From NCBI GenBank assembly GCA_035275345.1, contig DATEMY010000358.1, positions 8,314 through 72,313 on the forward strand: a stretch of 64,000 bases of DNA. Reading direction: 5' to 3'. Origin of the DNA: Blastocatellia bacterium (GTDB lineage Bacteria > Acidobacteriota > Blastocatellia > RBC074). A program made the translations under genes and the position numbers. The notes beneath the pieces are model-generated. The model was given only the letters and a program-made list of their open reading frames with translations. It did no database searches and was not told the origin of the DNA. Positions 563 through 58,424 of this stretch are shown here, one piece after another. Each line of letters begins with the position of its first letter. The first letter of the stretch is position 1.

Positions 563-2901
<2,339 letters not shown>

Positions 2902-4486: not shown

Positions 4487-5542
4487 ATGAGCGTCCTGAA
4501 AGATTTCAACCAAATCTGCCCGATTCCGATTGGGCAATACCCTCAGGTGACGCTTGCCCACGGGGGAGGCGGCAGACTGATGCATCAGCTCGTCGAGCGG
4601 ATGTTCATGCCAGCGTTTTCGAACCCGTTGCTCAGCGCGCGGCACGACGGGGCGACGTTCAGCGTCAATGGGTCGAGGCTCGCCTTCACGACCGATTCTT
4701 ACGTGGTCAGCCCGCTCTTCTTTCCTGGCGGGAACATCGGCGCCCTGGCGGTCAACGGCACAGTCAACGACCTGGCGATGTGCGGCGCGCGGCCGCTCTA
4801 CCTGAGCGCTGGGTTCATCCTCGAAGAGGGATTGCCGATGGAGACGCTCTGGAGCGTCGTTCAGTCGATGCGTTGCGCAGCCGACGAGGCGCGCGTCCAG
4901 CTGGTCACCGGTGACACTAAGGTCGTGGACAAGGGCAAAGGCGACGGCATCTTCATCAACACCGCCGGAGTCGGCGTGGTCGAACACGATCTTTCCATTT
5001 CGCCTGCGAGCGTGCGGCCCGGCGACGCGGTTTTGCTGAGCGGCGACCTGGGCCGTCACGGCATAGCGATTATGGCAGAGCGCGAAGGGCTGGCGTTTGA
5101 GAGCGCGATTGAGAGCGATTGCGCGCCGCTCGGCGACCTGGTGATGAGGCTGATCGACGCGAAGATTGAGATTCTTTGCCTGCGCGATCTGACTCGCGGA
5201 GGGTTGGCGAGCGCGTTGGTGGAGATCGCCGAAGCGGCGAAGGTCCAGATCAGGATCGATGAAAACTCAATTCCGGTTCGCGAAGACGTGCGAGGCGCGT
5301 GTGAGATCCTGGGCTTCGACCCGCTCTACCTGGCGAACGAAGGAAGGTTCGTGGCGTTTATCGCCGCGCCAGACGCTGACCGCGCCCTGGACATTTTGAG
5401 ATCACATCCGTTGGGCGATGGCTCTTGCCTGATCGGAAAGGTTACGAATGACTCTCCGCCTGCAGTGGTAATGAAAAGCAGGATCGGCGCCACGCGCATT
5501 ATTGATATGTTCAGCGGCGAGCAACTGCCGCGCATCTGCTGA
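4487..5542 (+). CDS. hypE: Hydrogenase maturation factor HypE
   Basis: PurM-like fold, 351 aa, C-terminal PRIC motif ending the protein (thiocyanate-carrying Cys). Confidence 0.9.
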
Positions 5543-5563
5543 ATTGGTTAGCAAATCAGTCAT

Positions 5564-5634
5564 TCCGGAGCGGCGGCTCCGGATCACCCCTCGTCGCCCT
5601 GCGCGCAGGAACGCGGCGCGCGAAGAGGGCGACG
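5564..5634 (+). terminator. Two consecutive GC-rich hairpins downstream of hypE (5564-5583 stem tccggagc/gctccgga; 5592-5634 stem cgtcgccct/agggcgacg); possible intrinsic terminators without a clear U-tract
   Basis: Inverted repeats read directly from the sequence, 20-90 nt after the hypE stop. Confidence 0.3.
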
Positions 5635-6110
5635 CCGAGTAGCGACAGCGCATTGGCGGCCACGACCTCAATGTCCGGGTCGGTTCCAGCGCGTTAACCT
5701 GCAAGCGCCGGCTAGCGCCCGATACCGACAAAGTAGCTCAGCTTTGTTTCACCAGTAATTTTCGGCGACTCAGTACAGAATGGTACGGAAAAGTCATCTT
5801 CATATCTGATATCGTCTTAATTCTCCCTTCACTCTCCAGGCCATGGACTGCTTGAATCAAGCAACGTGACAGGCGCTGGCGCATGGCTCGCCTCGTCATT
5901 TTGTGCGCGGACCATGGAGTGAGCTCATGCAAATTCCGTAAGCCGCGGCGTCAAGCGAGGTCTCAAGACCAATCAATCCCGTAACTCCCGACATTTCATC
6001 GTAGATAGCTCACCGATAGCGAGATCCTGGCGGTTCATTTATGACTTCCTTATGGCTTAACTGACAAGGTTCGCGGCGAGACTTTAAGGCGGGATATGGC
6101 GTAATGGGAC

Positions 6111-19373: not shown

Positions 19374-20429
19374 ATGGCGACAACAGCATCGACATTGAGC
19401 GAGCGCCCGCCGGACGTCAAAGAGGCGCACATCATCTGGCTCACGGCCGGTCTGGGTTGCGACGGCGATACGATCTCGGTGACCAACGCCGAGCAGCCCA
19501 GCATCGAGGACGTGATTATGGGGGCGATTCCCGGGCTACCGAAAGCGCATCTGCACAACCCGGTGCTGGCCAAGGAAGTCGGCGACGAATTCATGGATTA
19601 CTTCTACCGCGCCGAAAGGGGAGAACTTGACCCTTTCATCTTCGTCGTCGAGGGGTCAATTCCGAACGAGACGATCAAGCGCGAGGGCTATTGGGCGGCG
19701 CAAGGAACCGACCCGGAGACGGGGCAGCCGATCACGACCTGCGAGTGGATAGACCGCCTGGCGCCGAAGGCCTGGGCGGTGGTGGCCGCTGGAACTTGCG
19801 CCACTTATGGCGGCATTCACGCGATGGAAGGCAATCCGACAGGCTGCATGGGCCTGGCCGATTATCTTGGTTGGGACTTTCGTTCAATCGCCGATATCCC
19901 GATCGTCAACGTGCCAGGATGCCCGGTGCAGCCGGACAACTTTATGGAGACCTTGCTTTACCTGCTCTATCAGGCGGCCGGACTGTCGCCGATGATCCCG
20001 CTGGACGACAAGCTGCGCCCGACATGGCTCTTCGGCAAAACGGTGCATGAAGGCTGCGACCGGGCGGGTTATTACGAGCAGAGCGATTTCGCCCATGAGT
20101 ACGGCTCGCCCAAGTGCCTGGTCAAGGTCGGCTGCTGGGGGCCGGTGGTCAACTGCAACGTGACCAAACGCGGCTGGATGCGCGGCGTCGGCGGCTGCCC
20201 CAACGTCGGCGGCATCTGCATCGCCTGCACCATGCCCGGTTTCCCGGATAAATTCATGCCGTTTATGGACGAACCGCCAGGCTCGGCTCTCTCGACGGGC
20301 TTGGTTGGCGTCTACGGGGGAATGATCCGCGCGCTACGTGGCATCACCAACAACACCGTCAACAAGGAACCGAGTTGGCGGCATCCGGGGCCGCGCCTCA
20401 CCACCGGCTATCGGCCGCGAACATATTAA
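19374..20429 (+). CDS. hhyS: [NiFe]-hydrogenase small subunit, group 1h (high-affinity, Tat-less)
   Basis: ATG at 19374 with AGGAGAGG RBS. N-terminus MATTASTLSERPPDVKEAHIIWLTAGLGCDGDT starts directly at the conserved Fe-S domain, with no RRxFxK Tat signal. 351 aa; Cys-rich C-terminal region. Confidence 0.85.
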   Translation: MATTASTLSERPPDVKEAHIIWLTAGLGCDGDTISVTNAEQPSIEDVIMGAIPGLPKAHLHNPVLAKEVGDEFMDYFYRAERGELDPFIFVVEGSIPNETIKREGYWAAQGTDPETGQPITTCEWIDRLAPKAWAVVAAGTCATYGGIHAMEGNPTGCMGLADYLGWDFRSIADIPIVNVPGCPVQPDNFMETLLYLLYQAAGLSPMIPLDDKLRPTWLFGKTVHEGCDRAGYYEQSDFAHEYGSPKCLVKVGCWGPVVNCNVTKRGWMRGVGGCPNVGGICIACTMPGFPDKFMPFMDEPPGSALSTGLVGVYGGMIRALRGITNNTVNKEPSWRHPGPRLTTGYRPRTY

Positions 20430-20434
20430 TCGAC

Positions 20435-20505
20435 GCCGCGGGCGGTAGCGAGAGTGGTTCCCTGAGCCGATCATCGAGGAAGTCACTCTCGCTACCGCCC
20501 GCGGC
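20435..20505 (+). repeat. Perfect 22-bp inverted repeat (GCCGCGGGCGGTAGCGAGAGTG ... CACTCTCGCTACCGCCCGCGGC) with a 27-nt loop in the hhyS-hhyL intergenic region
   Basis: Read directly from the sequence; sits between the hhyS stop (20429) and the hhyL start (20528). Confidence 0.5.
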
Positions 20506-20527
20506 GCCCACCTGGAAAAGAAGGATT

Positions 20528-22324
20528 ATGGCTACTGCGACTAAATCGATGAAATCGGTTCTGCCCAAAACCGAAGGGCTGGTGGAGATGAACTGGGACC
20601 CGATCACCCGCATCGTCGGCAGCCTCGGCGTCTTCACCAAGATTGATTTTAAGAACAGAGAGGTTAAGGAGTGTTACAGCACTTCTTCGATCTTTCGCGG
20701 CTACAGCGTCTTCATGAAGGGCAAAGACCCGCGCGACGCCCATTTCATCACCAGCCGAATTTGCGGCATCTGCGGCGACAACCATGCCACGTGCGCCGTC
20801 TACGCCCAGAACATGGCCTTCGGGGTGAGGCCGCCGAACCTGGGTGAGTGGATCATCAACCTCGGCGAGGCGGCGGAGTATATGTTCGACCACAACCTCT
20901 ATCAGGATAATCTGGTCGGCGTAGATTTCTGTGAACAGATGGTCAGGGAGACCAACCCGGGCGTGTGGGAGAAGGCGCAACGGAAAGAAGCGCCGAACGC
21001 CAAGCTGCACGGTTACCGAACCATCGCCGACATTATGACGGCGCTCAATCCGTTCAGCGGCGAGTTTTATCGCGAGACGCTGCAAATGAGCCGGCTGACG
21101 CGCGAGATGTTCTGTCTGATGGAAGGCCGCCACGTCCATCCTTCGACGCTCTATCCAGGCGGCGTGGGCACGGCGGGCACGTTGCAGGTCTTCACCGATT
21201 ACCTCGTGCGGCTGATGAAGTACGTCGAGTTTATGAAGAAGGTCGTGCCATTGCACGACGATCTCTTCGACTTCTTTTACGAAGCGCTGCCCGGTTACGA
21301 GAAGGTCGGCGAGCGGCGCGTGCTGTTGGGCTGCTGGGGATCGTTCAATGATCCTTACGTCTGCGATTACACCTACCGGAACATGCCCGAGTGGGGGCGC
21401 GCGATGTATGTCACGCCGAGCGTCATTGTTGACAACCAGGTCGTGACCAATGACCTGGTCAAGATCAACCTCGGCATCCGCATCCTGCTCGGAAGCTCCT
21501 ATTACGAGGATTGGGAGAATGGCGAGACCTTCGTCAGCCACGACCCGCTCGGCAATCCCGTGGACAAACGCCATCCCTGGAACCAGACCACGATTCCCAA
21601 CCCGCAGAAGCGGGATTTCGAGGGGAAGTACACGTGGGTGATGTCGCCGCGCTGGTACGACGAACGGACTGGCGATTACCTGGCGCTCGACACCGGCGGC
21701 GGGCCGTTGCCGCGGTTGTGGGCGACGGCGGCCAACGGACTCGTGGACATCGGCTACGTCAAGGCCACTGGTGGCGGCGTCGTCATAAATCTGCCGAAGA
21801 CCGCGACGCTGCCCGAAGTCTCGTTCGAGTGGAAAATTCCGAAATGGTCGAACGCCATTGAACGCAACCGCGCGCGAACCTACTTCCAGGCCTACGCGGC
21901 GGCCTGCGCGCTCTACTTCTGCGAACAGGCGCTGGGCGAGGTGCGGGCGGGCCACAATAAGACCTGGTCCGATTTCAAAGTTCCGGAGGAGGCCATCGGC
22001 TGCGGCTTCCACGAAGCTGTGCGCGGCGTGCTCTCGCACCACGTCGTGATCCGCGATGGCAAGATCGCCAATTATCACCCGTATCCGCCGACCCCGTGGA
22101 ACGCCAGCCCGCGCGACATCTACGGCACGCCGGGGCCGTATGAAGACGCGGTGCAGGGCACGCCGATCTTCGAAGAGAACGGGCCGGACAATTTCAAAGG
22201 GATAGACATCATGCGAACCGTGCGCAGCTTCGATCCGTGCCTGCCTTGCGGCGTGCATATGTACCTGGGCGCAGGCAAGACGCTGGAGACGCGCCATTCG
22301 CCAATGTTCGGGATGATTCAGTAA
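20528..22324 (+). CDS. hhyL: [NiFe]-hydrogenase large subunit, group 1h
   Basis: L1 motif TSRICGICGDNHA and L2 motif SFDPCLPCGVH match the group 1h/5 signatures. A 21-aa C-terminal extension follows His (cleaved by the maturation protease). 598 aa from the ATG at 20528. Confidence 0.9.
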   Translation: MATATKSMKSVLPKTEGLVEMNWDPITRIVGSLGVFTKIDFKNREVKECYSTSSIFRGYSVFMKGKDPRDAHFITSRICGICGDNHATCAVYAQNMAFGVRPPNLGEWIINLGEAAEYMFDHNLYQDNLVGVDFCEQMVRETNPGVWEKAQRKEAPNAKLHGYRTIADIMTALNPFSGEFYRETLQMSRLTREMFCLMEGRHVHPSTLYPGGVGTAGTLQVFTDYLVRLMKYVEFMKKVVPLHDDLFDFFYEALPGYEKVGERRVLLGCWGSFNDPYVCDYTYRNMPEWGRAMYVTPSVIVDNQVVTNDLVKINLGIRILLGSSYYEDWENGETFVSHDPLGNPVDKRHPWNQTTIPNPQKRDFEGKYTWVMSPRWYDERTGDYLALDTGGGPLPRLWATAANGLVDIGYVKATGGGVVINLPKTATLPEVSFEWKIPKWSNAIERNRARTYFQAYAAACALYFCEQALGEVRAGHNKTWSDFKVPEEAIGCGFHEAVRGVLSHHVVIRDGKIANYHPYPPTPWNASPRDIYGTPGPYEDAVQGTPIFEENGPDNFKGIDIMRTVRSFDPCLPCGVHMYLGAGKTLETRHSPMFGMIQ

Positions 22325-28031: not shown

Positions 28032-28675
28032 ACACTACGCCACGCCTGGTCGAAGTCAGACGGAACGCGCTTAAACAGAATGACATCCTGGCTCGCGGGT
28101 TGCGCGACCGTTTCCGCGAGGCCGGCGTCCGCGTCGTCAGCCTGGTTTCAAGCCCCGGCTCGGGCAAAACCACGTTGTTGGAAAAGACGCTGGCGGCGTT
28201 GCGGCGGCAATTGCGTGTGGCCGTTATGGTAGGCGATCTCGCGACCGAGAACGACGCCGCGCGGCTCGCCCGAACCGAGGCGCCGGTCAAACAGATCATC
28301 ACCGGCGCGGTTTGTCATCTCGACGCCGCGATGATCGAGCGGGCGCTCGAAGGCTGGGACCTCGACGCGCTCGACCTGTTGCTGATCGAAAACGTCGGCA
28401 ACCTGGTCTGCCCGGCGAGCTACGACCTCGGCGAGGGGTCGCGGGCGGTGTTGCTTTCGGCGCCCGAGGGCGAAGACAAGCCGCTCAAATACCCGACGAT
28501 CTTCAACACGGCGGACGTGGCCGTGATCACCAAGATTGATCTGGCCGGCGCGGTTGAATTAGATCTTGACGTCGCGCGCGAAAACATTCAACGGGTGCGG
28601 CCCGGCATGCCGACCATCGAGGTTTCAGCGAAGACCGGCGAAGGGATGGAGGCTTGGCTGCGGTTTCTTCAATGA
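28028..28675 (+). CDS. hypB: Hydrogenase nickel-incorporation GTPase HypB (second copy)
   Basis: SSPGSGKTTLL P-loop, CH metal motif, ENVGNLVCPASYDLGE, ITKIDL; 215 aa. Divergent from the copy at 1-562. Confidence 0.9.
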   Translation: MNTTPRLVEVRRNALKQNDILARGLRDRFREAGVRVVSLVSSPGSGKTTLLEKTLAALRRQLRVAVMVGDLATENDAARLARTEAPVKQIITGAVCHLDAAMIERALEGWDLDALDLLLIENVGNLVCPASYDLGEGSRAVLLSAPEGEDKPLKYPTIFNTADVAVITKIDLAGAVELDLDVARENIQRVRPGMPTIEVSAKTGEGMEAWLRFLQ

Positions 28676-30972
28676 CGACACGAGTGCAAATTTTGGTTCG
28701 GGGCGTCGTGCAAGGCGTGGGGTTTCGCCCATACATCTTTTCGTTGGCCCGGCGTCGCGCGCTGCGCGGGCAGGTGGTTAACAACGCCGCGGGCGTTTTG
28801 ATCGATGTCGAGGGCGAAACGACCGCCGTCGAGCAATTCATTAACGAGATCGAACTGGGGCCGCCGCCGCTCTCGCGGATAGAATCGGTCGAGCGCCGCG
28901 ACAACCTGGCTCCCGCCGACTATCCGGAATTCCGCATCGCCGAGAGCGAATCCGCCGGACGGAAGTCAGTTCACATCGCGGCCGACATCGGCGTCTGCGC
29001 CGATTGCCTGAGGGAACTCTTCGATTCGCGCGACCGGCGCTATCGCTATCCGTTCATCAACTGCGTCAACTGCGGCCCGCGCTTCACGATCATCGAGGAC
29101 GTTCCGTATGACCGCGCGAAGACGACGATGCGCGAATTCGTTATGTGCAATGAGTGCCGCGCCGAATACGAAAATCCTTTCGACCGCAGATTTCACGCCG
29201 AGCCGACGGCCTGCGCGGTTTGCGGCCCGTGGCTTTATCTGACGGACGGGAACGGGCGCGAGCTTGAAACCGGCGACGGCGCGATCACCCGCTCGCGCCG
29301 TCTGCTTTTGAACGGAAAGATTCTCGCCGTCAAAGGCGTCGGCGGATTCCATCTCGCCTGCGACGCGACAAACGCCGAGGCGGTCGGGCGATTGAGGCGG
29401 AAAAAATATCGTGAAGACAAGCCGTTCGCGCTGATGGCCGGTTCGATCGAGGCGATTGAGGAACATTGTTCCGTCTCGACATTCGAGCGTGATTTGTTGC
29501 TCTCCGAGCGCCGCCCCGTAGTGTTGCTCGCGCGCAGGCCCGGTTCGTCCCTGTCGAGCCGGTCGAGCGCGGTGGCGCCCGGTCTGAACTCGCTCGGCTT
29601 TATGCTGCCCTACGCGCCGCTGCATTATCTGTTGCTGGAAAACCTCGACCGCCCGCTGGTCATGACCAGCGGGAACGTCTCGGACGAACCGATCTGCCAC
29701 GAGGATCGAGACGCGCTGGAGCGATTGAGTAAAATCGCCGACCACTTTCTGCTTCACGACCGGCGCATTCACGTCCGCGCGGATGATTCGGTGGTTTGCG
29801 CGCGCGGGAACAAAGAGCTGATCCTGCGCCGCGCGCGCGGCTATGCGCCCCACGCCTTGAAAACCCCTTTCAAATTCGAGCGCGAAATTCTGGCCTGTGG
29901 CGCGGAACTCAAAAACACTTTTTGTCTGACGCGCAGAGATCACGCCTTCATCAGCCATCACATCGGCGACCTGGAAAACCTGGAGACGCTCCGTTCGTTC
30001 GAGCGCGGGATCGAGCATTTCAAACGGCTCTTCAACCTGCGTCCCGAAATCATCGCCCATGACCTGCATCCGGAATACATCTCGACTAAATACGCGATGG
30101 CGCTCGGCGATGAAATGGTCAAAGTCGGCGTGCAGCATCATCACGCGCATATTGCCGGTTGCATGGCCGACAACGGCGTCGATGGCCAGGTGATCGGCGT
30201 GGCAATGGACGGGCTGGGTTACGGGACGGACGGACGTTTGTGGGGATGCGAATTTTTCGTCGCCGAATACGCGCGGGCCGAGCGCGTCACGCATCTCGAA
30301 TACGCGCCGATGCCCGGCGGAGCGAAAGCTATCCGCGAGCCATGGCGGATGGCGGCGATCCACCTGCAGCGGGCGTTGGGCGACGAGGCCTTCGATCTGA
30401 ATCTCGATTTCGTGAAACGAATGGATCGGCGCGCTTACGCGACGTTGCGCCGGATGGCCGAACGGGGAGTCAACAGTCCCGAAACGTCGAGCATGGGGCG
30501 GCTCTTCGACGCCGTGGCGAGTCTCGCCGGCGTGCGCGACGTTGCGCGGTATGAAGGCCAGGCCGCGATCGAGTTTGAGATGGCGGCGGACCCAAGCCAG
30601 AAGAGCGGTTATGAGTTCGACTGTTCCGGCAAGATCATCAAGCCGTCGCCGGTAATTCGCGGCGTCGTCGCCGACCTGCTCCGCCACGTCCCAACGCCGG
30701 TGATCGCGGCGAAGTTTCACAACGCGGTCGCCAGCCTGATTTTCCAGACCGCGCGGCGGATCAGGGCCGAGCGGGGGCTTCATCGCGTGGCCCTTTCGGG
30801 CGGCGTCTTTCAGAATCGTCTGCTTTTGAATCGGGCGATGAGGTTGCTCAAAGCCGACGGCTTCGAGGTCCTCACACACGGCCGCGTGCCGCCCAACGAC
30901 GGCGGCGTCTCGTTCGGCCAGGCGGTCGTGGCGGGCGCGCTGACCAGAGCGGACCGGGCAGGAGGTGTTTGA
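28672..30972 (+). CDS. hypF: Carbamoyltransferase HypF (second copy)
   Basis: Same domain architecture as the first HypF (acylphosphatase, two Zn fingers, YrdC, Kae1-like). ATGA overlap with hypB. Confidence 0.9.
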   Translation: MTTRVQILVRGVVQGVGFRPYIFSLARRRALRGQVVNNAAGVLIDVEGETTAVEQFINEIELGPPPLSRIESVERRDNLAPADYPEFRIAESESAGRKSVHIAADIGVCADCLRELFDSRDRRYRYPFINCVNCGPRFTIIEDVPYDRAKTTMREFVMCNECRAEYENPFDRRFHAEPTACAVCGPWLYLTDGNGRELETGDGAITRSRRLLLNGKILAVKGVGGFHLACDATNAEAVGRLRRKKYREDKPFALMAGSIEAIEEHCSVSTFERDLLLSERRPVVLLARRPGSSLSSRSSAVAPGLNSLGFMLPYAPLHYLLLENLDRPLVMTSGNVSDEPICHEDRDALERLSKIADHFLLHDRRIHVRADDSVVCARGNKELILRRARGYAPHALKTPFKFEREILACGAELKNTFCLTRRDHAFISHHIGDLENLETLRSFERGIEHFKRLFNLRPEIIAHDLHPEYISTKYAMALGDEMVKVGVQHHHAHIAGCMADNGVDGQVIGVAMDGLGYGTDGRLWGCEFFVAEYARAERVTHLEYAPMPGGAKAIREPWRMAAIHLQRALGDEAFDLNLDFVKRMDRRAYATLRRMAERGVNSPETSSMGRLFDAVASLAGVRDVARYEGQAAIEFEMAADPSQKSGYEFDCSGKIIKPSPVIRGVVADLLRHVPTPVIAAKFHNAVASLIFQTARRIRAERGLHRVALSGGVFQNRLLLNRAMRLLKADGFEVLTHGRVPPNDGGVSFGQAVVAGALTRADRAGGV

Positions 30973-47879: not shown

Positions 47880-48911
47880 TCATACCGAATGGGTTTCGTT
47901 AGCGGAGGGCAGGAACGACTCGATCAAATTTCCCAGATTCTGTGCGGTAGCCAGATCATAGATGAACTTGCTGACAGCCAGGTCGAGAATGCCCAGTCCG
48001 AAGGGGCTGAAGATGACCGGACGATTTCCGTCGCTCCGCGCTTCGGCGGCGCCTCTGATGATGTCTCCGATCGTGCAACGTATGAAGTCACGGTTGCCAG
48101 AAAGCCGTTCGGCCAGATGGACAGAGGTTTCGGCCCGGCACACATGATCAACATCATCAACGACGTTGTCAGACGACAGAATGATTTCCGGAGAGAGGTC
48201 TCGCAATGAGACGTGCAGGATCGTGCTGGCGGGTTGGATGAGAGCCGGATCGAAAATATGCGGCGTGCCCGCAGTGGTCGCCATGCTCACGAGCGTCGCG
48301 CTTCCGAAAACCTCATTGAGATCGCTGGCGACTTCGACGTCGATGTGGCCGAAAACTTCCTGACCTCTGACCTTGAATTCAGCGGCCCGCGACGGATCCA
48401 GGTCGAAGACCTTGAACCGTCGCAGATCGGGGAAAGTGGCGCGCAGAAACCGGGCGATTTCAAAGTTAATCGGGCCACAGCCGACCAATCCTGCCGAGCC
48501 GATCTGTTCTCTGCTACAGAGGAGTTTCGCGGCCAGCGCGGCGCTCGCCGCCGTCCGTTTAGCGCTGATCATCGAACCTTCCAGAATGGCTTCCACCCTT
48601 CCCGTCAATAAGTTATTCAGGATCACGACCGCCGAAGCTCGATCCAGATTTTGGGAGACGTTATCCGGAAAGGAGGAGATCCATTTGATGCCGGCGACAT
48701 TGAACCGGTTTCCGAGGTAGGCCGGGAGCGCGATGATTCGGTTTTGTGGCTGGCCGGGGAATCGCAGGAAACTGGAATGCGGTAGCGAACTTTCTCCCAG
48801 CGCATGGATTTCATAGGCCGCCCCCACGATGTCCATGAGATCGGCTTCACGGTCGCTAATGAGCGAGAGGACTTCCTTCGCGGTTAAGATGCGCACACTG
48901 TTGGAATACAT
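47880..48911 (-). CDS. Ornithine cyclodeaminase/mu-crystallin family NAD-dependent enzyme, SbnB-like
   Basis: OCD-family pattern with Rossmann segment GLVGCGPINFEIARFL; 343 aa. Co-clustered with an SbnA-like gene. Confidence 0.7.
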   Translation of the reverse strand: MYSNSVRILTAKEVLSLISDREADLMDIVGAAYEIHALGESSLPHSSFLRFPGQPQNRIIALPAYLGNRFNVAGIKWISSFPDNVSQNLDRASAVVILNNLLTGRVEAILEGSMISAKRTAASAALAAKLLCSREQIGSAGLVGCGPINFEIARFLRATFPDLRRFKVFDLDPSRAAEFKVRGQEVFGHIDVEVASDLNEVFGSATLVSMATTAGTPHIFDPALIQPASTILHVSLRDLSPEIILSSDNVVDDVDHVCRAETSVHLAERLSGNRDFIRCTIGDIIRGAAEARSDGNRPVIFSPFGLGILDLAVSKFIYDLATAQNLGNLIESFLPSANETHSV

Positions 48912-49020: not shown

Positions 49021-49626
49021 TCAATTCCCGGCGCTTGTCTCTATTTTTTCCAGCCGGCCATTACCATCGAGTGTTTTGAGGTTTATGTCGGCTATGCATC
49101 TGACATTCACATAATCCAACATCAGGGCGCCTTCGACATGAACCACCCCACTTCCGTTTTCAAAATCGGCTTTGCTGAAATCACAAGCATCACGATCCAA
49201 TCTGATGCCCAATTCCGTGCCCCCCTTCGTCTCGGTGAACTTAACATGAACATAATTGCGATCGACCGCCTCCTTGAAGAGCTTAACAGTCTTTTCCGGA
49301 CGCAGCCCTGCTTCAATGACATGGTCGCCTTCGCAAAGTCTATCCACAAGACTCTTCTCACGCGGCCTGTTCGTGTCGGGAGGCGGAGGCGGAGGCGGAG
49401 GGTTCTTAGCCATCTCCTCCATCTTTTTCTTGAGACTGAGGGGCCTCATATCCGTCCAAACTTCCTTGATGAAAGCGAGGCATTCGGCTTTCGGCCCCAC
49501 TTTCCCGCCGTCATTCCAACCGATTGGGTTCTCTTTGTATTCAGGCCAAATCGAATACTGTTCCTCGTGGTTTACGACAACTTTGTAAGTGGTAGTGTCT
49601 TCTTTGTCAGGGTCGGCCCAACTCAT
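49021..49626 (-). CDS. MbtH-like domain fused via a poly-Pro linker to a C-terminal domain of unknown function
   Basis: N-terminal [49 protein letters not shown] matches the MbtH signature. PPPPPPPP linker, then about 110 aa of unassigned domain. Confidence 0.7.
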
Positions 49627-49628: not shown

Positions 49629-50192
49629 TTATGTAATCTCCTTTTTATGTGAAGCCATGGCTGCGCGCGCAGCCGGTTGCTCGAACCGGAGCATTCGTTC
49701 GTCTCTTGTGAGAAGACGGCACAGGCCGTATTCCGTCAAGAAAGTTTTCTCTCCGGCCGAAAAGCCCAGTTGAGTACACAGAAACGATGACTGCGCTACC
49801 GCGGCGCCGAGCACAAGCCAGGTGTACTCAAAATTCCTTGGCGCCACGAACAGCCGGTGCGCTTCCAGCATCATTTTCATTGGGATGTTCAGACCGCGAT
49901 ATGATCGGATTACCGCTAATTGCGTGTAACGAGCCGACCTCGCCGACGGGGTAAATTCCAAGCAACATTTTTGGTGTAGCGCAAGATCTCCAGTGGTTTC
50001 GACCACGCTCAGCGTCGCAACGGGCTTACACTGCAGATCATCGATCGCCAAGATATGAAGCGCGTCTGAATTGTCGCTTACTCTTAGCGGCGCGAGCGCA
50101 ATCTTCAGTTCCTGCTCAAAGACGGATCGTCTGATATCCAACATCGCCGCTTCCTGGAAGCGGGTCGTAACCGGCTCTATTATTATCGCCAT
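49629..50192 (-). CDS. Hypothetical protein, possibly GNAT-fold N-acyltransferase
   Basis: 187 aa; weak resemblance to acyl-CoA N-acyltransferase folds; 2-nt spacing to the MbtH-fusion gene. Confidence 0.3.
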
Positions 50193-50376
50193 TTGAATTT
50201 CTCCTTTCCATAACTTGGAGTTTCCGATCCGGCGATCGATCCGATTCGATTTTCCCGCAATCCAATTTGATTACTCGATCCGCCAGATGAAAATATTTAT
50301 CGTCATGATTGATGGCCAATATGCACTTACCTCGACTTTGCGGGCGCCGTCCGCCACAGGCGAGTTGATCTGTTCT

Positions 50377-51429
50377 CTACGAGTAGAGGGTCCTCAAGGG
50401 GAAAGACTTCATTTCCTGGTCGGTTGGCTGCAAGTTCCAAGATCTCCCTCCCTCCTCAAATGGTATCTCCCAGAGGTGTGAGACATCCCCGAAATGTTCC
50501 AAGACCCATTGGTCCGAATAAATCGTGTCCATATATCGATCGCCTCGGTCCGGCAAGATAACTACGCAATTGGAACCGTCCGGAATTCTACCTTGTGACT
50601 TATTTACCGCGCTGATAACGGCTCCCGAAGATCCGCCCGCCAAAATCAACTCTTCCCTGACAAGTCGGCGGCAACCGACAACGCAATCCAGATCGGACAC
50701 CAGGACACACTCATCCGCCAGGTGAGGCTCGTAAAGCGATGGTCTGACCGACGCGCCATGACCTGGGATCAAGCGACGACTTGTCTTCCCGCCGAAGATC
50801 ACACTGCCTAGCGCGTCTACCGCAATTATTCTGGTTCTCAGATCTTGAACGTAGGCGTACTCAGAGCAACCGCGAAGCGTCCCGCATGTGCTTGTCGCAC
50901 AAAACAAGTAATCGACTCGCCCATCCAGGGCCTCGGCGATTTCACGCATGGTTTGATGATGGGCCTGGGCATTCCACAAGTTCGCATATTGATTCGGCCA
51001 AAAGCTGTGTGGAATCTGCGCCGTCAATTGCTTAACCCGATCGATTCGCGCCTGGAGATACTCGCCCGTAAGAGGGTCAGGTACCGTCACACACTCAATC
51101 TCGGCCCCGTACAGTCTCAAAATGTCGAGATTTTGCTTGGTAGTCTTGGGATCCACCACACACACAAACCGCAGGCCGAAGTACCGGCACATTTGAGCCA
51201 GCCCGATTCCCATATTCCCCGAGCTGGACTCGACTACGGTCGCGCCTGGACTAAGCTCCCCCGATATAACGGCATTTTTGATGATAGTCAGCGCAGTTCG
51301 ATCTTTTATGCTCCCGCCGGGATTAACCCCTTCAAGTTTGGCGAATAATCGAAAGCGCGCGTCAGGAAAAATCCGACTGAGCCGCGCCATCGGGGTATTG
51401 CCGATTTTCGAGATTATATCTCCAATCAT
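50377..51429 (-). CDS. PLP-dependent cysteine-synthase-fold enzyme, SbnA-like (N-(2-amino-2-carboxyethyl)-L-glutamate synthase family)
   Basis: NPGGSIKDR PLP-Lys motif, WPNQYAN, ILPDRGDRY, YSDQWV. Pattern closely parallels staphyloferrin SbnA. ATG at 51429 after GGGGAGAG. Confidence 0.75.
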   Translation of the reverse strand: MIGDIISKIGNTPMARLSRIFPDARFRLFAKLEGVNPGGSIKDRTALTIIKNAVISGELSPGATVVESSSGNMGIGLAQMCRYFGLRFVCVVDPKTTKQNLDILRLYGAEIECVTVPDPLTGEYLQARIDRVKQLTAQIPHSFWPNQYANLWNAQAHHQTMREIAEALDGRVDYLFCATSTCGTLRGCSEYAYVQDLRTRIIAVDALGSVIFGGKTSRRLIPGHGASVRPSLYEPHLADECVLVSDLDCVVGCRRLVREELILAGGSSGAVISAVNKSQGRIPDGSNCVVILPDRGDRYMDTIYSDQWVLEHFGDVSHLWEIPFEEGGRSWNLQPTDQEMKSFPLRTLYS

Positions 51430-51478
51430 CGCTTTCTCTCCCCTATTGTCTGAGTCTGTTGTTCCGGACAACCGAAAG

Positions 51479-51888
51479 TTAAACGGGGACGGCTGCTGTT
51501 GATGCAATGGACGTCTTCAACGCATTGGCTAGGCCCCGGACATTTGGCTCTCGTAGGATGGTGGTGTGGTTTCCGGGAACCCGGCGCCGAGTTATTTGCG
51601 CCGATGCATATTTGCCCCAACCCAGAGTCGAATCTGCGGGTTTGTTCTCGTGTCCATCATCGGCGGTGAAGATTGCGATCTCCCCGTGAAAAATTGCGGG
51701 ATTGTATTTTCGCAGAGCCGCCATGTTTTTCTTGGCGACTTCCAGGAAGCGCCGGGCATAGGTGATTTCGATATCAGGTGGTCGAACGGTAAATCAAGAA
51801 CGCCAGGGCTGCCCTTTAACCGGTTGGTCCAATAGTCGAGCTGCGATGTCAGCCCCCCACTTTGCAGCCATTTCTGAAATATCCTCAT
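51479..51888 (-). pseudogene. Frame-scrambled remnants of NRPS condensation and thioesterase domains downstream of the adenylation domain
   Basis: ORF 51592-51888 encodes LDYWTNRLKGSPGVLDLPFDH (condensation-domain N-terminal region). ORF 51479-51724 in another frame encodes AIFTADDGHE...VPGNHTTILREPNVRGLANAL (thioesterase C-terminal region). Neither is a full domain. Confidence 0.45.
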
Positions 51889-53236
51889 GATCGCGTAACA
51901 GCTTTTCTATTTCGCCCAATTCAACTCTTACACCCCTGATCTTGACCTGGTTATCCAGCCGACCGATCAACTCGAAATCCCCATTGAGCGTGACTCGACC
52001 GATGTCTCCTGTTCGGTAGATGAGGTCCTGAGGATCGTTTACGTTAAAGGGGTTCCGAATGAACGACTCCCGAGTCAGTTCAGGTTGTCGATAATATCCA
52101 TGGGAGCGATAGGGAGTGCGGATGAAGATTTCACCGACGACCCCTGGTGGACAGACCTCCATCTTTTCATCGAGCACCAACGCCTTGGCCCCTCTGATCG
52201 GCTTTCCCACCGGGATCAGACGGCGTTCCTGATCTGCAGGTTGGATAAAATAACAGAACTTGGCAAGCGTAGTTTCTGTAGGCCCATAAAGATTGACCAG
52301 TTGGATACGGTCGCCAAAAACGCTATACCATTTCTTCAGATCTGCAGGAAAAATCGGTTCTCCCGCCAGGAGGATGTACTTTAACGATTGGAAAGAATCA
52401 GGGCTCAGGGGCTCATTCAATATTGACCTGAACAGGCTGGGGGTGCAATGCATCAGGTTGATCTGGGCCGAATCAATCCATCTGACCAATTTCTCCGAGT
52501 CGAGCGCCGTCTCCCGATCCGGCGGGAGAGATAGTGTGGCTCCCGCGCATAAAGGTAGAAAGATATCTCTGAGAAACGGGTCAAAGGAGGGCGGAGTGAG
52601 CTGACTTACCCGGAAGTTTTCGTTTACTCCACATGTCTCGATCTCCCAATCTATGAAATGTAATAGACCGCGGCGGCTCCCGGCGATTCCCTTTGGTTTA
52701 CCGGTAGAGCCGGAAGTAAAGTAGATATAGCCGAGGTCCTTCGGGTTGTCGTTTGATACCTTCAACTCTTCCCCGGAAAAACTGGCGCAATGAGGAATCT
52801 TTCTCACGTGAACCGCCTGACCGGCCTTAATCACAATGATGGAGCAATCCGAACGGTTGTTTGCCGCGATCTGCTCGGCCGCTTCCTCGAATCCTTTTTC
52901 CACTATGAATCCTTGCGGCTCCGCTGTCGAGACCATTGCTTTGAGTCGGTTGACCGGGTATTTAGTATCCAGGGGCGCGAAAACGCAATTTGCCTTCAGT
53001 ACTCCGATGATGGATGCCACCAATTCAGCCGTATCCTCTATCAGTAAAGCCACGACGGAGCCATTAGCGACCCCGGCCGACGTCAACAGATCTCGCACCT
53101 TATTCGACCGCTGTTCCAACTCGTCATAAGAAAGTATGTGATCTTGCCATACTATTGCGTCTTTAGATCCGCGCTTTTTACCGCGCTCAATCAGTAAGTC
53201 AACGATTTCGCTGTTAATCGTTTGAGTAAGCTCCAT
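51794..53236 (-). CDS. NRPS adenylation domain, stand-alone and truncated after core A8 (lacks A9/A10 and any carrier domain)
   Basis: Cores A1 LSYDEL, A3 YFTSGSTGKPKGI, A4 FDPF, A5 NLYGPTETT, A7 YRTGDIGR, A8 GRLDNQVKIRGVRVELGEIE. Only about 35 aa follow A8. ATG at 53236 after AAGGAG. Confidence 0.7.
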   Translation of the reverse strand: MELTQTINSEIVDLLIERGKKRGSKDAIVWQDHILSYDELEQRSNKVRDLLTSAGVANGSVVALLIEDTAELVASIIGVLKANCVFAPLDTKYPVNRLKAMVSTAEPQGFIVEKGFEEAAEQIAANNRSDCSIIVIKAGQAVHVRKIPHCASFSGEELKVSNDNPKDLGYIYFTSGSTGKPKGIAGSRRGLLHFIDWEIETCGVNENFRVSQLTPPSFDPFLRDIFLPLCAGATLSLPPDRETALDSEKLVRWIDSAQINLMHCTPSLFRSILNEPLSPDSFQSLKYILLAGEPIFPADLKKWYSVFGDRIQLVNLYGPTETTLAKFCYFIQPADQERRLIPVGKPIRGAKALVLDEKMEVCPPGVVGEIFIRTPYRSHGYYRQPELTRESFIRNPFNVNDPQDLIYRTGDIGRVTLNGDFELIGRLDNQVKIRGVRVELGEIEKLLRDHEDISEMAAKWGADIAARLLDQPVKGQPWRS

Positions 53237-53746
53237 TGGCGCGCTCCTTTTTGAATGGGTATAGGATGAAGAAGTAATGTGGAAGAGATGACAAGCTTCG
53301 CTGGAGTGATTGCTGCTGATGCCCTTGAACATGGTCCGGGGGCTGACCAAACCCGGAAACGTCAAAACCTGATTAAGCCCGGTGAGATCGACTTCGCGCG
53401 TCGCCCCAGGATAACAGAGCGCCTATGAGATAATTGATTAGCAGCTCTCATTGCCATTATCCATGCGGCTCAGTTATTCCCAAACACAGACAGGCTACCG
53501 CTATTGCGTTTGGAATCTTCCTCCGCCCTCGGCTTCCGAGTAGGCTACCGCCATCGCAATTCTGCCCACCCTCCCAGACTTTTCCGACGGTGATACCTAA
53601 CGAGCGCCGATTACCAAGGGAATGAGCGCGCAGGGCGCAGAACATTTTTCTCTCTGATCGACTTCCTTAACTGACAAAACTATGAACGCGCTTACGCCAA
53701 GTCTTTTTATCTTTCCGGCTCCTGCTTCTGAAACAACACTCAAGGG

Positions 53747-56368
53747 TTATGCGGCTTTTGCTAGGCATGCGCCTTGCGTTGCCTTACGACCGGGATGAAC
53801 CAACGCCGGTCTGAACCCATGGCGATCAGCCAGCCAACCCATCTCCCTGACCTTATCAATGTCTAGATCAATTCCGAGGCTGGTATCTTCAAACCTATGC
53901 TCCAAAGCCAGGATCATAGTTTCGGCCATGCAGGCATAGGCAAGCCCGGTGTCTATATCCAGGGTGAAACTGATCTTAGAGTCGCCCGGCAAACTCACCA
54001 CGCCGCCATCGATCACAAAGATATCAGGACGGCTCATTCTGACGGCTCGACTTACATTCGGCGGGCGTGAGATATCACATACAACCGCCCCCTCTTTGAT
54101 GTATTCAGGCGCCGCCAAATCACCTGCTACATTTGTCGAAGTAATCACTACGTCAGCTTCTAGGAGCGACTGACGCATGTCGCGAGTGTCGGTAATAACA
54201 CACAAGCGGCGCCCCATTTCTGTGGCGAGTCCAATCCAATCTATCCTGCCTCTGTCCTGACGTCCGGCAAGCAGGAGGTCGCAGATCTCACCGGCGAGTG
54301 TTCCTTTAAGAAAGCTTTTGCCTTGCAAACCCAGTTCCTGGATCGAGCGTAAAATTTCCACGCTTACTTGTACCAGGCGGCGCTTACTCTCCGCCGGACG
54401 AGCCGGATTTCCGATTAAAAACAGTCTCTCTACATGCTGCGAGAGCAGAATGGAGATGGCGCGCCCTATCGAACCTGTGGCGCCCACAACTGCCGTACAG
54501 CTTGTAGACAAACGGCGCCCAGTCATCTCAAGCGCCGCTTCGATGGATTGCTTGGCGGCGACGGCAGTATAGGAGTTGCCAGTGGTCAGCGGCGGCAATC
54601 CATTGTCTCCGAGGTAAAGACCACCACGCGTTACTATCGACGTATACGCGCCCAATCCGATTATTTTCGCTCCCCTTTCCTGAGCTATCCGCACCGCCGT
54701 CCTTATTTCTGATACGGCCTCGTAATAGGGCATCTGCGTCAGCTCTTCCGCGGTGCGCGGCACGATAATGAACTCGCCGTAAGCAGTCTGACCAGTCTTT
54801 GAGACGACGTGCGCATCGCCGATTACGAATGGGTCAAAATTCTCGGCGACACATGAGGCCAGTCGCGCAACCTGCCGATCTGAAAGTATGCTAAGGCTTG
54901 TGTCGATGTTCGCATAGTCACGCACTGTCAATGGATGCAGAAGAAAGGCAAAGCGATTGACTCTATCGGTCACGGGGAATTGGTAGACGTTCGAACGCCC
55001 CTGGGGCTTCAACTCCTTGACGTCAACATCTATTCCCGTAAGATGGGTGGTGAAATACGCCGTGTTGCGTAACTCCAATGCATCCAGGGTATCTTCAAAA
55101 GCTTCCAGGAAAAGCTCACACTCCTTCCAGGTAGCGATCAGCGGAGGTTCGATGCGGAGCACCCCGCCATCGTTCAGGGTATATCCTAGGCGTACGCCGC
55201 TTACCGCCAGCATACGACTCACAACGAGCGAAGCTAAGGCTTCATTTTCTCCAAGGCAGCCCAGCAGACCGGAACCCCAGTTGAAGCGGTTGATGCCTAA
55301 ACGAATTCCCAGCATGTAGCCGCGTCCGCTAATTACGTTGACAATGTTCGGATGTTTCTCCTTAAGATACTGCAATTCCTGTTTCAAGCGAGCGCCGTTA
55401 TCCGCAACCTGCCTGATTAACTGGCGGTCGTTTTCCTCCAGGAGATCCAGCGTGGCCAATCCGATTCTGCACGCGAGAGTATTTCCGGCGAAAGTAGAAG
55501 TGTGCTTCAGCGCGAAATCATCATTGTAAACATCTTCCTTACATAAGCAGGCGCCGATCGGCGCCAGCCCGCCGCCGAGGGCTTTAGCAATGGTAATAAC
55601 ATCCGGAATAACCCCCTCAGTATCGCAGGCAAACATCGCACCGGTGCGCCCCAAACCTGTTTGGATTTCATCGACGATCATCTTGGTCCCGCTTTTCCTA
55701 CAGATTTCTCCGGATTGCGCGAGATACCCTGGAGGCGCCTCGATGATCCCCCCTTCTCCTTGAATCGGTTCGACGATGAAGGCCGAATAAAACCGGCTGG
55801 CTAACGCGCGTTCAAGCGCCCCAAGATCGCCGAAAGGAACATAATCAAACCCATTGACCGGCGCCCCGAAACCTTCCTGATACTTTCTCTTATCGGTTGC
55901 GGACAGGGCGCCCAGGGTTTTCCCATGGAAACCGTTATTGGTGGCCAGAACACCGATCCTGCCTGTGCTGGACCGGCACAGCTTAAGAGCGGCTTCGACC
56001 GTTTCAGCCCCACTGTTGGCAAAGGTCACGTACTTCATACCCGGTGGCGCCACATTGACCAGCCGCTTTGCTAATTCACCGGCGGCTTCAAGGCAGGAGG
56101 GTTGAACTAAGCTCGGCTCAAGACGTGTTCGCACCTGCTCAACGGCTTGCCATATATATGGATTGTTGAACCCGAATGGGAGGGCGCCATATTGAGCCAG
56201 AAAGTCCAGATAACGCCTTCCCGACTGATCGTAAAGGTAACAACCTTCCCCCCGAACGAACACCTTATCCATCTCAAATTGCGACATCAACCGCCCAAGG
56301 CGCGGATTCATATGGTTGAAGAACGGATGATCCCGTCTTAAAGACTTTTCTTGTTCGTCTTTCATCAT
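53747..56368 (-). CDS. Bifunctional fusion: class-III (omega) aminotransferase domain + acyl-ACP reductase (AAR)-like NAD(P)H-dependent reductase domain
   Basis: N-terminus has PLP motifs DEIQTGLGRTG and ITIAKALGGG. C-terminal 340 aa (GAYTSIVTRGG...TTGNSYTAVAAK...AVVGATGSIGRAISILL...DKVREMGWLADRHGFRPALV) parallels cyanobacterial acyl-ACP reductase. Start ATGATG at 56368 after AAAGGAG. Confidence 0.75.
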   Translation of the reverse strand: MMKDEQEKSLRRDHPFFNHMNPRLGRLMSQFEMDKVFVRGEGCYLYDQSGRRYLDFLAQYGALPFGFNNPYIWQAVEQVRTRLEPSLVQPSCLEAAGELAKRLVNVAPPGMKYVTFANSGAETVEAALKLCRSSTGRIGVLATNNGFHGKTLGALSATDKRKYQEGFGAPVNGFDYVPFGDLGALERALASRFYSAFIVEPIQGEGGIIEAPPGYLAQSGEICRKSGTKMIVDEIQTGLGRTGAMFACDTEGVIPDVITIAKALGGGLAPIGACLCKEDVYNDDFALKHTSTFAGNTLACRIGLATLDLLEENDRQLIRQVADNGARLKQELQYLKEKHPNIVNVISGRGYMLGIRLGINRFNWGSGLLGCLGENEALASLVVSRMLAVSGVRLGYTLNDGGVLRIEPPLIATWKECELFLEAFEDTLDALELRNTAYFTTHLTGIDVDVKELKPQGRSNVYQFPVTDRVNRFAFLLHPLTVRDYANIDTSLSILSDRQVARLASCVAENFDPFVIGDAHVVSKTGQTAYGEFIIVPRTAEELTQMPYYEAVSEIRTAVRIAQERGAKIIGLGAYTSIVTRGGLYLGDNGLPPLTTGNSYTAVAAKQSIEAALEMTGRRLSTSCTAVVGATGSIGRAISILLSQHVERLFLIGNPARPAESKRRLVQVSVEILRSIQELGLQGKSFLKGTLAGEICDLLLAGRQDRGRIDWIGLATEMGRRLCVITDTRDMRQSLLEADVVITSTNVAGDLAAPEYIKEGAVVCDISRPPNVSRAVRMSRPDIFVIDGGVVSLPGDSKISFTLDIDTGLAYACMAETMILALEHRFEDTSLGIDLDIDKVREMGWLADRHGFRPALVHPGRKATQGACLAKAA

Positions 56369-58424
56369 TGTCGCTCCTTTCATTTTTCGTGGGGTAAACA
56401 AGAAGGAATGACGCTAATTGGGATATGCTTGGATCGCCTCTGAAAAGGTTGTCAATGGGAACCTCTATCCCAAGCGATTCTTCAATACTGCTTACAAGCT
56501 CGGTTGCGGCAAGAGAGTCCAGACCATAGCGGGCAATAGGCTGATCCGTGTCTATTTTATGGGGGCTGATATTAAACATTGAGGAACACTTAAGCGACAG
56601 CCAAGCTTTCAATGACTCCAAGGTCCGCGGCGCGTCTTCGGGCTGGAGAGTTTGCCCGCTCGCCGACTGGCTGGCTGTGAACTGGCGTCGATAAACCGAC
56701 TCCAGGCTTTCGTTCAGAAACGCGGAGCGGACTGCGCTGCGCTGAATCTTACCGCTGGATGTTTTCAGTAAGCTTCCAGGTCTAATCAATACGATGGTGG
56801 AAATATCTATTTCGTGTTCTACCAGGATCGCCTGGCGGACGCTATCCACCACTTCATTCATATCGACACTGTTTCGACGCTCACGATTCAATTCGGCGAC
56901 TAAGATCAATCGCTCCGTCTCATCACCAGCTACGGCGAAAGCCGCCGAACATCCCGGACGCAACGCCGGGTGACTCGCTTCCGCCGTAATCTCTATATCC
57001 TGCGGGTAATGGTTGCGTCCGCGAATGACGATCAGGTCCTTAATGCGCCCGGTCACATATAAGTCGCCATGAAAGAGGACTCCAAGGTCTCCCGTGCGTA
57101 GGTATGGACCTTCATTGGTATCGGTGAGCCGCGCGCGGAAAGTCGCATCGGTCAACTCCGGTCTTCCCCAATATCCTTGAGCCACGGCGGCGCTCGATAC
57201 CCAGATTTCTCCCACTTGACATTCATCACATTTAGTGAGGGTCTGTGGATTAACGGTAATAATTCGTTCTCCGAGCCATGTCCGTCCGCTGCTTACAAGC
57301 GTTACTCCGTCCTGAAGACGACTGGACACAATCGCTCTGTGATCTTCCAGCCCGGCTTTATCGAAAGTAGTGACGGCCGGAGCTTTTGAACCTACGCCTC
57401 CACTCACAAATAAGGTAGCTTCGGCGAGTCCATAGCATGGATATAACGCCTCCGGGCGAAACCCGTATGGTGAAAAGGCCTCGGCAAATCGTCTCAGCGT
57501 CTCATCTCGAACAGGTTCCGAACCGTTGAATGCGGTTCTCCAGCAACTCAGGTCCAACCCCTCGAGGTCTTCCTGACGCGCTTTACGCACACAGAGATCG
57601 TATGCGAAGTTTGGCCCCCCGCTGAAAGTGGCCCTGTATTTCGATATGGCCTTCAACCAACATGCCGGTTTCTGTAGGAACTCCGTAGGCGCCATCAGGT
57701 AACACGGAGCGCCATTGTACATTCCCGCAAGAATGTTCCCGATTAGGCCCATGTCGTGATACATCGGTAACCATGACACGATGACAGTGTCGCCATCATG
57801 TCGGAGGCCTTCTCTCATCATCGCCTGGTTATATAGGAGGTTACCGTGACTCACCAGCACGCCTTTCGGCGTCGAAGTGGAACCGGATGTGTATTGCAGA
57901 AATGCGATGGTCTCCTCATTAACTCTGGTTTCCTTCCAGAGTTCCGCCTGCCCCAGGTCGACGTCGTCTGTTATAACCCACCGTATGGATCTTAACTTGG
58001 GGATCTGATCCAACTGGTTTTGAAGGCGTGAGAATATAGCCGAGGTAGTCAATGCGACTACCGGGTTTGAATCATCAATAATAGCTAGTAAACGTCCCAG
58101 ATTTTGGTTCAATCGTGGCGGATTAGCGGGAACGGCCACAGCCCTTCCATAAAGACAGGCGTAAAAAGCGACGATATAATCCAACCCTGGCGGGTAGAGA
58201 AGCAGGACCCGTTCATCCTGCGCCTTCAGCTCCTGAAGATGGGCGGCGACGGCGCGGGCTTTATGCTGTAATTGAGCGAAGGTCAACCGGTCCGCCTCTT
58301 CACAATCAGATAGAAAAACATAGCTTGGCTGGTCCGGTTGTATTTTGGCCATTGCGTTCATTACATCAATGAACGAAGAGGCGCGACTCAAATCAAATCC
58401 ATATTGTGATATTTGACTATTCAT
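56274..58424 (-). CDS. Fatty acyl-AMP ligase (FAAL) fused to a C-terminal acyl carrier protein domain
   Basis: AMP-binding cores (YTSGSTSTPKGV, YRTGDLG, GRIKDLIVIRGRNHYPQDIE). C-terminal PP-binding segment LDSLAATELVSSIEESLGIEVPIDNLF with Ser in DSL. 8-nt overlap (ATGAATAG) with the upstream receiver gene. Confidence 0.8.
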   Translation of the reverse strand: MNSQISQYGFDLSRASSFIDVMNAMAKIQPDQPSYVFLSDCEEADRLTFAQLQHKARAVAAHLQELKAQDERVLLLYPPGLDYIVAFYACLYGRAVAVPANPPRLNQNLGRLLAIIDDSNPVVALTTSAIFSRLQNQLDQIPKLRSIRWVITDDVDLGQAELWKETRVNEETIAFLQYTSGSTSTPKGVLVSHGNLLYNQAMMREGLRHDGDTVIVSWLPMYHDMGLIGNILAGMYNGAPCYLMAPTEFLQKPACWLKAISKYRATFSGGPNFAYDLCVRKARQEDLEGLDLSCWRTAFNGSEPVRDETLRRFAEAFSPYGFRPEALYPCYGLAEATLFVSGGVGSKAPAVTTFDKAGLEDHRAIVSSRLQDGVTLVSSGRTWLGERIITVNPQTLTKCDECQVGEIWVSSAAVAQGYWGRPELTDATFRARLTDTNEGPYLRTGDLGVLFHGDLYVTGRIKDLIVIRGRNHYPQDIEITAEASHPALRPGCSAAFAVAGDETERLILVAELNRERRNSVDMNEVVDSVRQAILVEHEIDISTIVLIRPGSLLKTSSGKIQRSAVRSAFLNESLESVYRRQFTASQSASGQTLQPEDAPRTLESLKAWLSLKCSSMFNISPHKIDTDQPIARYGLDSLAATELVSSIEESLGIEVPIDNLFRGDPSISQLASFLLVYPTKNERSDNDERRTRKVFKTGSSVLQPYESAPWAVDVAI

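Follow-up and report, generated by a model that had tools for sequence, protein, structure and literature searches.

The stretch of DNA analysed in this study (the window, 64,000 nt) is part of an 89,444-bp contig from a metagenome-assembled genome (MAG) of Blastocatellia (Acidobacteriota). It carries what are very probably the remains of a nonribosomal peptide synthetase (NRPS): an adenylation (A) gene that stops early, a short piece of a condensation (C) domain and the C-terminal end of a thioesterase (TE) domain. All genes of interest at this locus lie on the minus strand, and their coordinates are collected in Table 1.

The A open reading frame (ORF) matches Pfam AMP-binding (PF00501, E = 1e-72) and TIGR01733 (364 bits, cut-off 317), and its 480-aa product is 100% identical to a database protein in NCBI, ENA and Logan (P0001, [quoted passage not shown]). 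In adenylation domains, motifs A1-A7 belong to the Acore subdomain and A8-A10 to the Asub subdomain, with the GRxD hinge at the start of A8; the A10 lysine (K517 in GrsA) stabilises the adenylation half-reaction (PMC11253843). Motifs A1-A8 were all found in the 480-aa protein by regular expressions, and A8, which reads GRLDNQVKIRGVRVELGEIE, ends at residue 444, in agreement with a first-pass annotation that had described cores A1-A8 as intact and the protein as stopping about 35 residues after A8. The same annotation had claimed that the A10 lysine and any carrier domain are missing, and this was borne out. Pfam gave no match to AMP-binding_C (PF13193) or PP-binding in the A ORF. In all six frames of 51380-52000, regular expressions found none of the motifs A9, A10, thiolation (T; GGxS), C3 (HHxxxDG) and TE (GxSxG), nor the carrier-site pattern GG[HD]S. 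When compared with an A-T profile built from 39 A-T and A-T-TE homologues, the A protein aligned to model positions 3-458 of 639 only. Homology to A domains stops at about nt 51860, at ...EIEKLLRDHEDISEMAAK, some 15 residues past A8; the last ~21 codons before the TGA at 51794-51796 have no similarity to A domains and are an out-of-frame reading of the C piece. The protein thus has the Acore with A1-A7 and the family hidden Markov model (HMM) match of an NRPS adenylation domain but not a complete Asub with A8, A9 and the A10 lysine, and the adjacent thiolation domain with GGxS that makes up an NRPS module is absent.

The part of the protein that is homologous to A domains (458 residues) contains no stop and no frameshift. 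Among 116 homologues, 78 columns are at least 97% conserved, and none of these near-invariant positions is changed in the window; other family members show 0.6 deviations on average at the same columns. In a search of 5.8 billion proteins, every homologue at 62-67% identity to A was a full stand-alone A-T protein of 640-658 aa. The closest of them (P0002, P0004 and P0006) were considered as orthologous loci and rejected because the cluster type differs (methyltransferase, Asn synthase, A-T). In the A-T loci nearest to A (L001-L004), the genes upstream are a methyltransferase and an asparagine-synthase-like gene, and an aminotransferase gene is transcribed divergently. In L001 and L002 a 716-aa ketosynthase stands next to this aminotransferase, and L001 also has a separate thioesterase and a phosphopantetheinyl transferase downstream.

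The C piece, in the +1 frame relative to A, reads QKWLQSGGLTSQLDYWTNRLKGSPGVLDLPFDHL (QKWLQSGG...LDLPFDHL). It corresponds to about positions 185-220 of a C domain of ~450 aa, and no C-domain sequence flanks it on either side. It matched Pfam Condensation (PF00668) at profile positions 184-236 with E = 0.079 (12 bits, below the cut-off of 30.6) and an NCBIfam NRPS model with E = 0.0066; eight of its nine PDB matches (E = 0.25-1) were C domains, aligned at the same position. Weak singly, these separate matches all agree on where in the C domain the piece belongs. Six-frame translation of the window and the fetched loci (4.5 million residues) contained the pattern YW...L.G.{2,4}L.LP.D 33 times, and the other 32 occurrences all lay inside complete C domains. 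An HMM of C-domain segments (29 segments) picked out the piece from 1662 six-frame pieces of the window with E = 9e-9, the next best being E = 3.2; the match covered model positions 107-140 of 258 only, and the training set had been chosen by the same motif, so that the E-value is somewhat flattering. With neither the full ~450-aa fold nor the HHxxxDG motif of Condensation, the piece is a fragment of a former C domain and not a member of the family.

The TE piece comprises 104 residues (51793 to 51482, ending ...VPGNHTTILREPNVRGLANAL...) and holds the catalytic His (PGNH) and the native stop codon TAA (51479-51481), which lies 50 nt upstream of sbnA. The relic lacks the GxSxG serine and the Asp, and with them the complete Ser/Asp/His triad of a type I thioesterase (PF00975). 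In BLASTP it matched the C-termini of A-T-TE proteins (E~1e-14, 30-38% identity). An exhaustive phmmer search against 1.8 billion representatives returned 2939 matches (E down to ~1e-15), and in nearly all of them the matching part was the very end of a protein of 1,000-3,700 aa, at its C-terminus. Pfam gave no match for the 81-aa ORF that covers most of the relic, and a chimeric query of the C and TE pieces found no match in the word-indexed search of 5.8 billion proteins (no shared 5-mers). The identities that the first-pass annotation had given to the two pieces were therefore confirmed, the C piece by Pfam, NCBIfam, PDB and the segment HMM and the TE end by BLASTP and phmmer. It had also placed both pieces in frames other than that of A, which is true of the C piece only; the TE relic is in frame with the A domain and is set off from it by the TGA at 51794-51796. 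Neither relic contains an internal stop.

Only ~380 nt separate the end of A homology from the TE stop codon, and two junctions fall within them (Table 1). A related locus was found by a metagenome scan with SbnA (L087; JGI Ga0154003_1002109, 6174 bp). The arrangement of L087 recurs in contigs L168 and L169 (ENA and Logan), which were again retrieved with the 187-aa neighbour as query; besides these two, that search yielded one unrelated locus, and no contig that reaches the body of the relative's NRPS. The relative (L087/L168) has ~88-93% nucleotide identity to the window, and BLASTN of L087 gave three collinear blocks. In L087 these are 157-470 (window 51781-51468, 87.6%, TE tail), 2238-3425 (window 51525-50337, 93.1%, sbnA) and 4960-6056 (window 50339-49242, 88.2%, 3' end of an ATP-binding cassette (ABC) transporter gene, 187-aa gene and MbtH fusion). 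The TE frame of L087 is open from contig base 1 and has at least 52 further TE-lid residues upstream of the point where window homology starts (PPDI...). At that point the window carries the C relic instead. Since the TE homology to L087 starts there and the C relic lies upstream of it in the window, the second junction could be fixed to within a few bases. The longer TE frame of L087 supports the earlier proposal of a deletion scar in a once larger NRPS, as does the second scar described next. As a side observation, two independent assemblies (L087 and L168) both start within TE, 156-174 nt upstream of the point that corresponds to the window breakpoint.

The same comparison uncovered a further scar, which the first-pass annotation does not mention. 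L087 contains a complete 581-aa ABC transporter gene between sbnA and the 187-aa gene, which is also complete in L168 and L169, and the window keeps codons 508-579 only. The deletion measures 1.53 kb, with the junction GCAAAG/TCGAGG at ~50337-50339 and AAA(G) on both sides in L087. Judging from these sequences, it is a typical microhomology deletion and a second independent scar at the locus. L087 also has a 517-aa radical-SAM/DUF4070 gene between the TE end and sbnA. This gene is bracketed by a ~59-bp imperfect direct repeat (~80% identical) of the TE 3' end, at 412-470 and 2237-2295, and is absent from more distant relatives. In the window, 51468-51525 is a single, chimeric-looking copy of the repeat, whose 5' side is like repeat 1 and whose 3' side is like repeat 2; the difference could be either a gain in L087 or a recombinational loss in the window. 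More distant sbnA loci show a recurrent order, ...C-A-T-(tailoring)-TE, ABC transporter, sbnA, sbnB, MbtH, and a layout of this kind (C-A-T-TE, ABC, sbnA, sbnB) is what the fragments in the window would imply. The comparison of orthologous loci that had been suggested in the first-pass annotation thus supplied a longer TE and an intact ABC gene (L087/L168); an intact A-T-C-TE gene was not recovered.

Another explanation offered at the outset was that the assembly carries indels here. The true genome would then contain an intact A-T-C-...-TE gene, into which an assembler added indels or within which it jumped between NRPS repeats. Such repeats are a known cause of misassembly, the source is a MAG, and in the relatives L087 and L168 the contig ends within TE. 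However, a Logan contig from SRR5195143 (L006), which another assembler produced, agrees at 100% identity with the 3046 nt of window 50234-53279 and spans both NRPS junctions and the start of the ABC scar. ENA contig k141_2494077, compared over 21.4 kb, has no indels and four single-base differences (50938, 47114, 45658 and 42713), none of which falls in the scar; they are probably strain-level variation or consensus differences between depositions. Steps from ~15 residues past A8 to mid-C and from mid-C to the TE lid, accompanied by a frame shift, are not the signature of a repeat collapse, and a repeat scan around the scar saw neither repeats flanking the NRPS junctions nor insertion-sequence remnants. 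A scan for promoters and terminators around the scar gave nothing above chance. The finding of one or two frameshift errors that restore a continuous A-T-(C)-TE frame had been named as a refutation of the scar. Such a rescue is impossible in principle: in the ~380 nt, A9-A10 and T are absent, as are most of C and two thirds of TE, and the residues that were lost, several hundred or more, are beyond repair by any small indel. Assembly indels are very unlikely on this evidence, and misassembly in the wider sense is an improbable account of the locus.

Table 1. Features and junctions at the NRPS locus (positions in the window)
Feature	Position	Strand	Remarks
FAAL-ACP gene	56274-58424	-	ORF open; upstream of the A gene
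Class-III aminotransferase fused to a reductase-like domain	53747-56311	-	ORF open; upstream of the A gene
Truncated NRPS adenylation gene	51794-53236	-	480 aa from ATG 53236; longest ORF 51794-53365 from TTG 53365
Junction 1, A (~15 residues past A8) to mid-C, with +1 frame shift	51860-51880	-	Exact base ambiguous: two homology alignments overlap by ~16 nt
Condensation-domain relic, 34 aa	51775-51876	-	+1 frame relative to A
Junction 2, C relic to TE lid region	51781-51785	-	DNA homology to L087 begins here (CC.CCTGATATC)
Thioesterase-domain relic, ~100 residues	51479-51785	-	Same frame as A
sbnA-type pyridoxal-phosphate enzyme (L-2,3-diaminopropionate pathway)	50377-51429	-	ORF intact; TIGR03945
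ABC-transporter relic, last 72 codons	50125-50340	-	By comparison with the 581-aa gene of L087, L168 and L169
187-aa protein, no known family	49629-50192	-	ORF intact; syntenic orthologue in L087/L168
MbtH-like protein with poly-Pro linker and extra C-terminal domain	49021-49626	-	ORF intact
sbnB-type dehydrogenase (OCD/mu-crystallin family)	47880-48911	-	ORF intact; TIGR03944

Several genes around the scar are still open, namely sbnA, sbnB, the MbtH fusion, the 187-aa gene and the FAAL/aminotransferase-reductase pair. Both sbn products exceed their NCBIfam equivalog cut-offs (SbnA, TIGR03945, 430.5 bits vs 349.95; SbnB, TIGR03944, 413.1 bits vs 326.9). The view that the NRPS part decays while the FAAL, aminotransferase-reductase and sbnAB genes stay intact is correct as far as these genes are concerned, but the decay is not limited to the NRPS, as the locus has also lost its ABC exporter. 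No further NRPS C, T or TE gene was found in the window or in the 10 kb past its high-coordinate end, and the sole carrier domain near the A gene is that of the FAAL-ACP gene.

The FAAL-ACP gene and the aminotransferase/reductase gene recur as a conserved two-gene unit without an NRPS in Candidatus Angelobacter, Pyrinomonadaceae, Holophagales and Thermoanaerobaculia (L007-L010, L018 and L051). None of the 80 loci retrieved through the aminotransferase/reductase fusion has an A gene, sbnA, MbtH or sbnB downstream. Because the pair recurs without an NRPS in other Acidobacteriota, it is probably a separable module, and its presence is not proof that the cluster is otherwise whole. The fusion protein possibly converts a fatty acyl thioester to the aldehyde and then to the amine. 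It has a partial match to PigE (NF053554), and on its own it occurs at more than 590 genome loci in many phyla.

The MbtH-like domain is joined by a run of eight prolines to a C-terminal domain of ~120 aa, which has a weak match to Pfam CBF_beta (E = 7e-6, just above the Pfam cut-off). L163 (12703-13383) keeps the fusion at 84% and L130 (3244-3825) at 61%; the MbtH protein of L087/L168 is divergent after residue ~128 and ends early. Neither Pfam nor NCBIfam has a match for the 187-aa protein, and the search of 5.8 billion proteins gave just three relatives: itself, the L087-type orthologue (80%) and a third (49%) whose gene context is unrelated. The remainder of the window is taken up by genes for hydrogenase maturation, alternative complex III and cytochrome oxidase, by regulators and by a TonB receptor. 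It includes two full-length HypF carbamoyltransferase paralogues (499-2901 and 28654-30972, plus strand), together with a NiFe hydrogenase large subunit (20375-22324), the ActD subunit of alternative complex III and cytochrome oxidase subunits.

Taken as a whole, the data indicate that the interval is very probably an NRPS pseudogene whose interior was lost by deletions, the assembly line and the exporter both being gone from a decaying cluster. Domain fragments, disrupted frames and a related locus with a longer version are all present; an intact orthologous NRPS body is not among the recovered loci. As a pseudogene the case is an ordinary one, in which an antibiotic-type cluster is decaying in an uncultured soil acidobacterium. 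The comparison with the relatives points to loss in the window rather than gain elsewhere, and the missing motifs point to a loss of NRPS function. The ancestral architecture would have been A-T-C-[A-T]n-TE, in one gene or two. An ancestor with two genes, a stand-alone A-T followed by C-...-TE, is possible in view of the closest A homologues, which are stand-alone A-T didomains themselves.

The course of events may be pictured as follows. The 3' end of the NRPS, with the TE and its stop codon, would still be at its native place just upstream of sbnA, while at least two deletions by illegitimate recombination would have taken out the interior. The first would lead from ~15 residues past A8 into mid-C with a change to the +1 frame, removing A9, A10, the carrier and the first ~185 residues of C; typical domain lengths and the 639-node A-T profile suggest a size of at least ~1.1 kb. 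The second would lead from just after the LPxD motif of C to the TE lid, with loss of the remainder of C, of further modules, if any, and of the Ser and Asp of TE. It would amount to at least ~1.1 kb if TE followed directly after C, and to ~3 kb or more with at least one A-T pair between them. A third deletion, the 1.5-kb microhomology loss of the ABC exporter, would mean that the cluster was dismantled piecemeal. What can still be translated would be the Acore, the hinge, A8 and a nonsense tail of ~21 residues. As no A10 lysine, phosphopantetheine site, condensation active site or TE nucleophile is left, the assembly line presumably makes no product. The undecayed A core, the relics without internal stops and the dN/dS pattern, for all its small site counts, suggest a recent loss, when measured against the divergence of the window from L087 (dS about 0.2-0.3).

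Some points weigh against an NRPS pseudogene made by deletion. No orthologue with an intact NRPS was recovered and the relatives' contigs stop inside TE, so that the ancestral architecture and the number of NRPS deletions could only be inferred. The pairwise dN/dS values relative to L087 (TE relic 0.41, ABC relic 0.77, sbnA 0.18, MbtH part 0.11) are higher for the relics than for the open genes, as expected, but are based on few sites, which makes them indecisive and unfit to date the deletions. The undecayed A core and the stop-free relics are compatible with a recent deletion, and also with an A core that is still under selection. In addition, the read sets behind both assemblies may coincide, in which case a population polymorphism with intact and deleted alleles is formally possible.

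Continued selection is the substance of a second alternative, which has a slim chance: the truncated protein would be a retained, functional stand-alone A core, for example as a partner of the MbtH fusion or of an Asub or carrier acting in trans, with the C and TE pieces as debris. A more specific version, with slightly poorer prospects still, has the Acore plus A8 under selection as an amino-acid- and ATP-binding protein together with the MbtH fusion, for example in sensing or as the partner of an Asub or carrier in trans. If true, a selected A core would explain why 78 near-invariant positions are intact beside a lost synthetase. The stop-free 458-residue A part and the open MbtH-like fusion, sbnA and sbnB with their low dN/dS are in keeping with it, and constructs without Asub fold well enough to crystallise, as in PqsA (5OE3) and NpsA (6VHW) (cited in PMC11253843). 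The window protein resembles these laboratory constructs in having an N-terminal A subdomain without a functional Asub; unlike them, it arises from an out-of-frame genomic deletion and keeps the hinge, A8 and a nonsense tail. The point of truncation is set by an out-of-frame junction and not by a clean domain boundary. Moreover, for at least 10 kb in both directions there is no separate gene for an Asub, a T or a C domain, the 62-67% homologues are without exception complete A-T proteins, and adenylation needs the A10 lysine (PMC11253843). The least likely idea, which takes the window as ancestral and explains the difference by insertions in the relatives, is plausible for the radical-SAM gene of L087, with its ~59-bp direct repeat and its absence from more distant relatives, but is inapplicable to the NRPS and ABC genes, for which a 34-aa stretch of C, the last third of TE and 72 of 581 ABC codons are leftovers of complete genes.

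The NRPS pseudogene can be placed beside several known systems. Among documented cases the nearest is the microcystin synthetase (mcy) cluster of non-toxic Planktothrix, of which 90% was lost with flanking genes and remnants left behind (Christiansen et al. 2008, PMC2464740). In both cases a large cluster, of the NRPS/polyketide synthase type in Planktothrix, was deleted, short remnants are found and accessory genes are open (PMC2464740). The Planktothrix deletions are tied to transposable-element remnants, whereas the junctions in the window show none and one of them has 3-4 nt of microhomology; the window also keeps the first A core and the TE tail inside the gene, unlike mcy. With canonical A-T proteins (P0002-P0011) the locus shares an A core that is 62-67% identical, and with canonical A-T-TE proteins (P0014/P0099) a TE tail that is 30-38% identical to their C-termini. 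The canonical initiation and elongation modules also include the C-A-T-TE type, with the terminal module of L129 as a further example. The order TE, ABC, sbnA, sbnB is common to the window and to relatives from soil metagenomes. Unlike canonical modules, however, the window has no Asub beyond A8, no T, only a small part of C and no TE nucleophile, and is not a working member. The SbnA/SbnB pathway to L-2,3-diaminopropionate (L-Dap), of the staphyloferrin B type, is represented by both enzymes above their equivalog cut-offs and beside NRPS genes, as in many loci; in contrast to those loci, the NRPS that presumably consumed the L-Dap is destroyed.

In sum, this study found a locus that genome-mining tools would count as an NRPS/FAAL cluster, and from which no peptide product is to be expected. 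This calls for caution in counting clusters in MAGs. The locus is a clean example of a cluster dismantled by small non-homologous or microhomology deletions and not by transposons, with two of the three junctions resolved to a few bases. The precursor-supply genes sbnA and sbnB and the separable FAAL/aminotransferase-reductase module have outlived the synthetase.

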